Shown here one piece after another: positions 24,499 through 25,098 of a DNA stretch of 64,000 bases. Numbering within the stretch: the first letter of the stretch is position 1; the number at the start of each line of letters is the position of its first letter. Origin of the DNA: Eledone cirrhosa (lineage: Eukaryota). The position numbers were made by a program, and so were the translations under genes. The stretch covers positions 86,180,001 through 86,244,000 of the forward strand of contig OZ024741.1 in the NCBI GenBank assembly GCA_964016885.1. The letters are read 5' to 3'. Under the pieces are notes generated by a model that made no database searches, had not been told where the DNA came from, and worked only from the letters and a program-made list of their open reading frames with translations.

Positions 24499-25098
24499 TG
24501 GCGGCTGCCAACTCGTTTTCGAGTACGGCCACTACTTTATATCCATGTAGGAGAACTCCTACTGATGCGCTGAACGAGTGACTTTTTAGTCCAGCCAGCG
24601 ACTTGAAAACTCTGGTACAAACACTACACTTGTGACAATTATTGACACACAGTGCTGGGCCCATGGTACCATGTGACGACAAGTGCAGAGAGATCTCCAG
24701 ATATAAAGCAATGCCTGTGCCGTGAAGCCTTTATAGTGAGCAAAGGCACTGCACAAAGCCAGTCCCACTCTCTTAACCAAGATGATATTTACCAAAAAGA
24801 AGAACAAGTCAACATCATTGGATACCATCAGAGTTGCAGGTGTTATATCAGAGTTTTCCTTCTCCTAGAATTCTGCCTTGACAAAGGCTAAGGGGTCATC
24901 TCTCCCGGTGATTTTGGATGGCCATTGACTCTTAAGAGCTCCTTTGACAGGTTTTATTTTTAGTCCTGCAGGATGTCCAAAGTCACCCTCCTCACCAAGA
25001 AACCTTAGTGGGGTTGCCAGTTTAGTCGCCAACGACCCGACCATGGGACAGGTTGTACTGGAATACATGTTACCAGTAGCACCAAGTGGTGACCTGAC
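24499..25098 (-). mobile_element. Short non-autonomous RTE-derived element, copy 2 (more complete 5' end)
   Basis: Inverted copy of 22538-23126 extending about 20 nt further 5'; flanked by (TA)n/(CATA)n. Confidence 0.75.
24982..25098 (-). ncRNA. Twister-like ribozyme fold at the element 5' end; cleavage-site loop degenerate
   Basis: P2 TCACC/GGTGA, P3 TACTGG/CCAGTA, P4 CCTG/CGGG, L4 TCCCA, GAGGG, P1 GTCA/TGAC, covarying T2. Confidence 0.6.

Follow-up and report, generated by a model that had tools for sequence, protein, structure and literature searches.

Retrotransposons of the RTE type are known to carry structured RNAs at their exact 5' ends. Perere-3 of Schistosoma begins with twister ribozymes (T-variants) that would free the element from a read-through transcript (PMC8501958), and ribozymes similar to that of hepatitis delta virus (HDV) form the 5' ends of RTE and R2 elements (cited in PMC5786205 and PMC12222951), those of R2 having also been proposed to protect from 5' exonuclease. 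Bipartite non-autonomous RTEs and RTE-derived short interspersed elements (SINEs) combine a piece of RTE 5' untranslated region (UTR) with an RTE 3' end, have no open reading frame (ORF) and reach high copy numbers (Kojima 2018, PMC5786205). Exonuclease-resistant RNAs (xrRNAs) are described in a 2021 review as characterised solely in viruses, with the existence of cellular examples posed as a question (PMC8374639); flaviviral 3' UTRs are the only known source of classes 1 and 2 (PMC11702639), and PMC13161572 covers viral and designed examples. Here we describe, in a 64,000-nt stretch of the Eledone cirrhosa genome (GenBank assembly GCA_964016885.1, contig OZ024741.1, positions 86,180,001 to 86,244,000 of the forward strand; hereafter, the window), an RTE-related element whose ~57-nt head is likely (probability about 0.6) to be a flavivirus-type, subclass-1a knot that blocks a host 5'-3' exonuclease and so sets and protects the 5' end of the element RNA. 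No xrRNA in a retrotransposon and no published non-viral xrRNA appeared among the top-ranked results of broad literature searches, which covered few subscription journals and left supplements outside their scope; the available portion of PMC13282606 mentions neither ribozymes nor xrRNA.

The original prediction for this locus had quoted a set of minus strands, which we located at 25098-24982, and had placed them at the head of a ~600-bp non-autonomous RTE derivative landing in (TA)n. We confirmed the element with its RTE-type parts and the (TA)n/(TATG)n repeats on either side, as well as the loss of the 5' strands from a neighbouring copy, which lacks its first 20 nt at 22538. The window holds the following representatives of the family:

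24498..25098, minus: copy 2, full-length ~600-bp non-autonomous bipartite RTE-related element of young subfamily A
22538..23125, plus: copy 1, inverted, 5'-truncated by 20 nt, without the 5' strands of pseudoknot 1 (PK1), P1 and P2
63573..63674, plus: piece of the older subfamily C that lacks the head and adjoins the 3' portion of an RTE from an unrelated family

Copies 1 and 2 are 95-96% identical, and copy 1 is unable to form the ring of the knot because the 5' strands of PK1, P1 and P2 are absent. The family is abundant: in pattern searches of the 3.0 Gb genome, a 29-nt core pattern gave 12,131 exact matches against none for the reversed-pattern control, and at least 11,814 intact exact heads were counted. 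Three subfamilies (A, B and C) were observed. The 5' end is sharp: an unbiased sample was formed by taking the first 30 loci matched by the core pattern, in which the 5' end plays no part, and 24 of these copies begin at the head and in register. Target-site duplications were read by eye at few loci (L149, L384), since most flanks are microsatellites. The element is non-autonomous, bipartite and RTE-related, and its sharp 5' end carries a structured head. It had been portrayed as a SINE-like bipartite element with a ribozyme head and a C2H2 tail; the bipartite build and the C2H2 remnant were borne out, the ribozyme head was not.

Anatomy and relatives of the head

An Rfam scan of positions 24820-25105 against 4227 families returned a sole match, Flavivirus_SLIV (RF01415; 23.9 bits, E=0.043), and the head of subfamily C gave the same single match (22.1 bits). 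Among 64 candidates scored genome-wide with RF01415, the top three are heads of this element family, at 29.0-29.6 bits. The parts of the predicted fold, all on the minus strand and numbered in brackets from the first G, are:

25042..25099, minus: subclass-1a xrRNA-like core, ~57 nt, based on the Rfam match, pair counts, descriptor and minimum-energy fold
25099-25097, minus: strand of PK1 and the base triple
25096-25093 with 25052-25049, minus: P1 (nt 3-6 with 47-50)
25091-25080, minus: P2 (nt 8-11 with 16-19)
25079, minus: junction C (C20)
25078-25073 with 25061-25056, minus: P3 (nt 21-26 with 38-43), with the 11-nt loop L3
25055-25053, minus: J3/1
25069-25066 with 25045-25042, minus: pseudoknot 2 (PK2; loop nt 30-33 with 54-57)

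The minimum-energy fold of the head is the P1-P2-P3 three-way junction which, together with PK1, the triple, the junction C and PK2, makes up the named features of subclass 1a (PMC8374639, PMC7603331, PMC7527734, PMC4829329). In PK1, G1 faces C44 and is paired in 87 of 88 in-register heads, a second pair being possible in copy 2; PK1 shows no covariation because it is invariant. The nucleotides of the U·A-U triple are nearly as constant (U2 in 85/88 heads, A22-U42 in 84/88), and U2 could dock on A22-U42. Junction C20, between P2 and P3, is kept in 86/88 heads. P2 pair 11-16 is C-G in 68/88 heads and U-A in 18/88; the local hairpin suspected earlier of competing with P2 does exist, yet it is the real P2, and it covaries. 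A pattern with the C-G version of the P3 closing pair had no match in the genome.

Compared with the subclass-1a xrRNAs of mosquito-borne flaviviruses (RF01415, Flavivirus_SLIV, and RF03547), the head shares the sequence of the 5' strand and P1, the three-way junction, the junction C, the triple nucleotides and PK1. The lengths agree as well, P3 plus L3 spanning 23 nt here and 17-23 nt in the viruses, and PK2, with 4-6 pairs, lying 2-3 nt after P1 in both. The head differs in several respects: the viral fold stands in a 3' UTR and this one at the 5' end of cellular retrotransposons, no dumbbell or cis-acting replication element (CRE) follows the head, another pseudoknot domain takes the place of the canonical P4, and resistance is here a prediction.

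Relatives of the head were sought with a sequence-only pattern, which gave 76 viral loci and at least 119 metagenome loci. Of the viral records, 16 have the size of a flavivirus genome and match the pattern close to the 3' end; Rfam finds a 3'-UTR family of flaviviruses in 15 of these, and the 16 score between 25 and 96 bits with RF01415. Some real flavivirus xrRNAs score as low on this model as the heads do (29.7 bits for L206, 28.1 bits for L243), and several fall under the gathering threshold. At least 20 repeat-like homologs occur among the metagenome matches listed; the head stands directly before an RTE-like endonuclease (EN) frame in L274, before a degenerate one in L331, and in L346 and L370 before what we take to be RTE-like UTR motifs. 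The core is 75-91% identical to that of its relatives, and the following 100 nt are 46-86% identical.

In an alignment of 12 heads pairing is complete (180 of 180 cells). Double-sided changes occur at five pairs, of which three belong to P3 and two to PK2; the four pairs of PK2, two of them with compensatory changes, are formed in every row. The covariation score is 0.346, versus 0.121 for shuffled alignments (0/500) and at most 0.087 when the structure is slid. A descriptor of the full fold passes copy 2 and 11 of 16 flavivirus 3' UTRs and, among the matches listed, 8 of 20 repeat homologs and 1 of 159 other pattern matches. A chance likeness, arising in an ordinary and functionless RTE 5' UTR, would suit an Rfam E-value of only 0.043 in a region chosen post hoc, but it is very improbable in view of the covariation of PK2 and P3 across distant elements, the exact position at the 5' end and the failure of all 200,000 mononucleotide shuffles to pass the descriptor. 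We hold with high confidence that the head is a real and conserved flavivirus-type xrRNA-like fold.

Similar folds were also seen elsewhere. On metagenome contigs, an interspersed SINE-like family of ~230 nt from another organism starts with the same xrRNA-like fold (L262, L276, L278, L287, L301, L304, L321, L361), some of its copies showing tandem 5-nt repeats of the first motif. Contigs of 3.7-4.8 kb with 1a-like folds (L196, L200 and L317, the last with two in tandem) are possibly non-flavivirus RNA viruses, and one metagenome contig (L376:299-352, minus) bears a complete 1a-like fold with no recognisable retrotransposon downstream.

The core is followed by another conserved block:

24990..25041, minus: second structured domain, a predicted H-type pseudoknot (25041-25016) and then a hairpin (25012-24990), with a coremin-like spacer motif

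Within the genome this domain is 93-97% paired, with no double changes, and it is conserved also in L274 and L370. Like coremin/xrRNA-C of the Watson-Crick type (PMC6546385, PMC10321173), it combines a short hairpin and a UAAAC spacer with a pseudoknot between loop and spacer, and a further hairpin comes next; it differs in its loop, which is 9 nt long and lacks the YGAD consensus, and the likeness is taken as a lead only.

The twister reading

The same strands had been mapped onto a type-P1 twister whose self-cleavage at a U/A site would define the 5' end. With twister anatomy taken from PMC8501958, the pairings can be drawn for copy 2 and are not kept across the family: 5 of 30 copies retain the CC of the tertiary pairing T1, and the 5' strand proposed for T2 occurs in 2 of 24 heads. 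The UAA loop, whose absence from the family had been named in advance as speaking against a twister, is present in none of the 24 intact heads (GG in 23, GA in one), and a search with the twister covariance model, a failure of which had likewise been named, gave no match at gathering or at E<=10. On seven distinct copies from the three subfamilies the twister pairing fills 86.5% of the cells, equal to the shuffle mean (249/500), with P1, P2 and P4 at 96-97%, T1 at 54.5% and T2 at 57%. As a positive control, RF03160 found nine twisters among 61 scored genome candidates, all of them heading the 5' ends of other RTE elements.

A degenerate type-P1 twister would explain the GAGGG and UCCCA-like words at twister-like spacing and the drawable P1, P2 and P4, and twisters do head RTEs, in the literature (PMC8501958) as in this genome. 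Set against these are the loss of UAA, T1 and T2, the lack of excess over shuffles and of a model match, the P1 5' strand, which stays in the copies rather than being cut off, and the distant homologs L304 and L346, which keep the xrRNA core and lose the GAGGG strand. We give this reading hardly any credence, and the type-P1 twister (RF03160) was rejected; at the sequence level, an end made by twister cleavage at U/A appears unsupported.

Intact-looking type-P1 twisters (40-50 bits) were found at the 5' ends of RTEs with EN frames (L138-L146; e.g. G000:C5:19851371-19851425). These elements start at the U/A site, and TA-repeat flanks often replace the 5' strand of P1.

Other candidate heads were likewise set aside. 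An HDV-like ribozyme, a nested double pseudoknot with a catalytic C, was rejected when our own descriptor matched none of five heads tested, and a tRNA-headed SINE was rejected on the basis of zero ARAGORN genes in the window and no tRNA family by Rfam. Hairpin, pistol and hatchet ribozymes had no Rfam match on 24820-25105, their motifs being otherwise compared by eye.

Head exchange and the 5' end of the element RNA

The head is not confined to this element:

24833..25098, minus: mobile 5' module, ~190 nt of it common to subfamilies A, B and C; ~270 nt also occur joined, always at one junction, to a different RTE body

It was found on RTE-B at 12 of 30 junction loci (the other 18 keep the native UTR), on RTE-C in 10 of 16 copies (two look like duplicates) and on the RTE body of L180, making at least three other RTE bodies in this genome. 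The head behaves as an exchangeable 5' module. In these switches it replaces or precedes the native 5' UTRs of other RTEs at fixed junctions (L111, L115, L116, L120, L133, L135, L378-L390 and others), and the head-switched chimeras spread. The native head of RTE-B fitted the HDV-like descriptor in one of six copies tested; this one (L134:1201-1380) fits an HDV-like ribozyme with a long J1/2 by our own descriptor, and Rfam misses it.

Flaviviral knots halt the exonuclease ~5 nt before P1 (PMC7749634), and three extra nucleotides are therefore expected upstream of the first G:

25099..25101, minus: TAT directly upstream of the first G, at the predicted halt ~5 nt before P1; could be target-derived

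Among the 26 flanks of lower repetitiveness, T stands at position -3 in 16, A at -2 in 18 and T at -1 in 21, and position -4 is near random.

We propose that a copy of the element would be transcribed by read-through from an upstream promoter and that, once the transcript was decapped or cut upstream, its flank would be degraded by Xrn1 or Xrn2, with a halt a few nucleotides before P1, the knot setting and protecting the 5' end of the element RNA. xrRNAs are described as passable from the 3' side (PMC7603331). The reverse transcriptase (RT) of the partner RTE, recruited by the tail and an end-to-end helix (described below), could copy the RNA to its end, since the knot would open from the 3' side, and target-primed reverse transcription would paste the copy into TA/TATG repeats. 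The head would then do the job that twister and HDV-like ribozymes do in sister RTE families, replacing a ribozyme or a promoter; unlike the ribozyme-headed RTEs, it has no catalytic core, and the end would come from trimming by a host exonuclease and not from self-cleavage. It is quite probable that the head resists exonuclease and, with somewhat less assurance, likely that it defines the 5' end of the element. The head is predicted to work like a subclass-1a xrRNA and is not classed as a member until resistance is shown.

An alternative accepts the xrRNA-like fold as real and RNA-stabilising and lets an internal promoter at or near the first G set the 5' end. Several junctions with nothing upstream of G1 would fit, as would the movement of the ~190-nt head among RTE bodies in the manner of promoters of long interspersed elements (LINEs). 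This is nonetheless unlikely: the head is not a tRNA, its conserved positions coincide with an RNA tertiary fold in which the partners of a pseudoknot have changed in a compensatory way, and sister families carry RNA-processing heads. A different functional RNA sharing the xrRNA topology (for instance a translation element, a site bound by the RTE protein or a self-cleaving ribozyme of a new kind, made of the head and the second pseudoknot domain) would agree with the very sharp end at G, as after HDV-like cleavage, with the conserved domain that follows and with the ring-closing A missing in the youngest subfamily. We rate it as less likely still, as the five heads tested failed the HDV-like descriptor, no Rfam ribozyme was found at E<=10 and the literature names for subclass 1a the same nucleotides that are invariant here (PMC8374639, PMC7603331).

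Several observations weigh against an exonuclease-blocking knot of the flaviviral kind. The folding z-score of the head is weak (-0.6; flavivirus control, +0.2), and all Rfam scores are far under the gathering threshold of 54.5 bits (23.9-29.6 for copy 2 and the three best heads). The A that closes the ring in the A37-U51 reverse pair of Zika is U in 69/88 heads, copy 2 included, and A in 19/88; U51 is present in 84/88 heads, and its partner A is found in the older subfamilies and in most of the distant homologs. The 12 covariation rows were picked for intact heads, represent about four lineages and exclude three rows with a linker 1 nt shorter, and the descriptor was written after inspection of the data. 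RF01415 at E<=10 finds nothing in 7 of 8 metagenome homolog loci scored, and a model derived from the heads scores flaviviral xrRNAs at 13.6-20.8 bits, no better than chance pattern matches (20.9 for L249, 19.3 for L188). The head is absent from 10 of 10 fetched copies of the autonomous RTE that matches the tail. As for the end itself, a TA/TATG target preference could yield the same upstream TAT pattern, and some inversion junctions (L098, L116, L131) keep nothing before the first G where a halt should leave ~3 nt.

We put at about even odds a broader possibility, namely that a widespread class of animal RTEs and their SINE-like derivatives mature their RNA 5' ends by a true flavivirus-type xrRNA, possibly in tandem with a coremin-like second block. 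If so, no cellular family of xrRNAs would precede this one, which would be on a par with the twister and HDV ribozymes as an exchangeable module and would give LINEs a third way, beside promoters and self-cleaving ribozymes, to define their 5' ends. The family would also be a candidate, as donor or as recipient, for horizontal transfer of the flaviviral element and would bear on how the viral knot arose. The genome offers more than 11,000 candidates which, like the distant homologs, are open to testing. Insertion by R2 is limited by 5' stability (PMC12222951), and the heads could offer natural 5'-stabilising modules for retrotransposon-based gene insertion.

Body of the element and other features of the window

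Downstream of the second domain, copy 2 consists of RTE-type parts:

24708..24914, minus: segment sharing 68-70% identity with the 5' UTR found in an autonomous RTE (L405-L412)
24699..24713, minus: 5' arm of a 15-bp long-range helix joining the 5'-UTR part to the tail
24578..24637, minus: C2H2 zinc-finger coding remnant of the RTE ORF end, enclosed by the long-range helix (E=3e-4 for Pfam zf-C2H2, which misses the cut-off)
24530..24544, minus: 3' arm of the long-range helix, 15/15 paired
24498..24529, minus: RTE-type 3' tail with a small hairpin and CAT terminus, resembling the autonomous partner's 3' end

The autonomous RTE encodes ~1200 aa with three C-terminal C2H2 fingers, and its 3' end is nearly the same as the subfamily B tail and similar to that of subfamily A. 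A protein search with the tail peptide gave no match. The element resembles described bipartite RTEs, from which it differs in its head, derived neither from tRNA, 5S or 7SL nor from the tail-matching RTE copies seen and constituting a separate module common to several RTE families, and in the covarying helix that joins its two parts. This UTR-tail helix, of 13-15 bp, is formed in the three subfamilies despite their differing sequences; six of 10 autonomous copies carry these arms too, separated by 3.8-4.4 kb and paired at 11-12 of 14 positions. End-to-end pairing of this kind may explain why RTE derivatives are bipartite.

The RTE reached via window positions 63675-63998 (L082-L086) was considered as the partner and rejected. 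L082, L083, L085 and L086 represent another intact RTE (1056 aa) with a sharp start bearing a short hairpin and a spacer, the latter equal to the coremin spacer in 9 of 10 nt (with the coremin reference reconstructed in part from mutant names in PMC6546385). Such a head is possibly a fourth kind of 5' module.

Two perfect local palindromes lie between the inverted copies; they gave spurious microRNA matches and may be products of inversion or assembly. The window also contains other repeats and long frames, the translations of the last two entries having been judged by eye:

23537-23657 and 23779-23886: perfect local palindromes
7438-10695, plus: 1086-aa open frame with EN, RT and PHD domains, an intact RTE-like LINE
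28119-29110: AT-rich minisatellite array with a 40-bp unit
41591-47106, plus, and 34124-35653, plus: long frames resembling an L1/Tx1-type LINE and a PIF1-like helicase fragment
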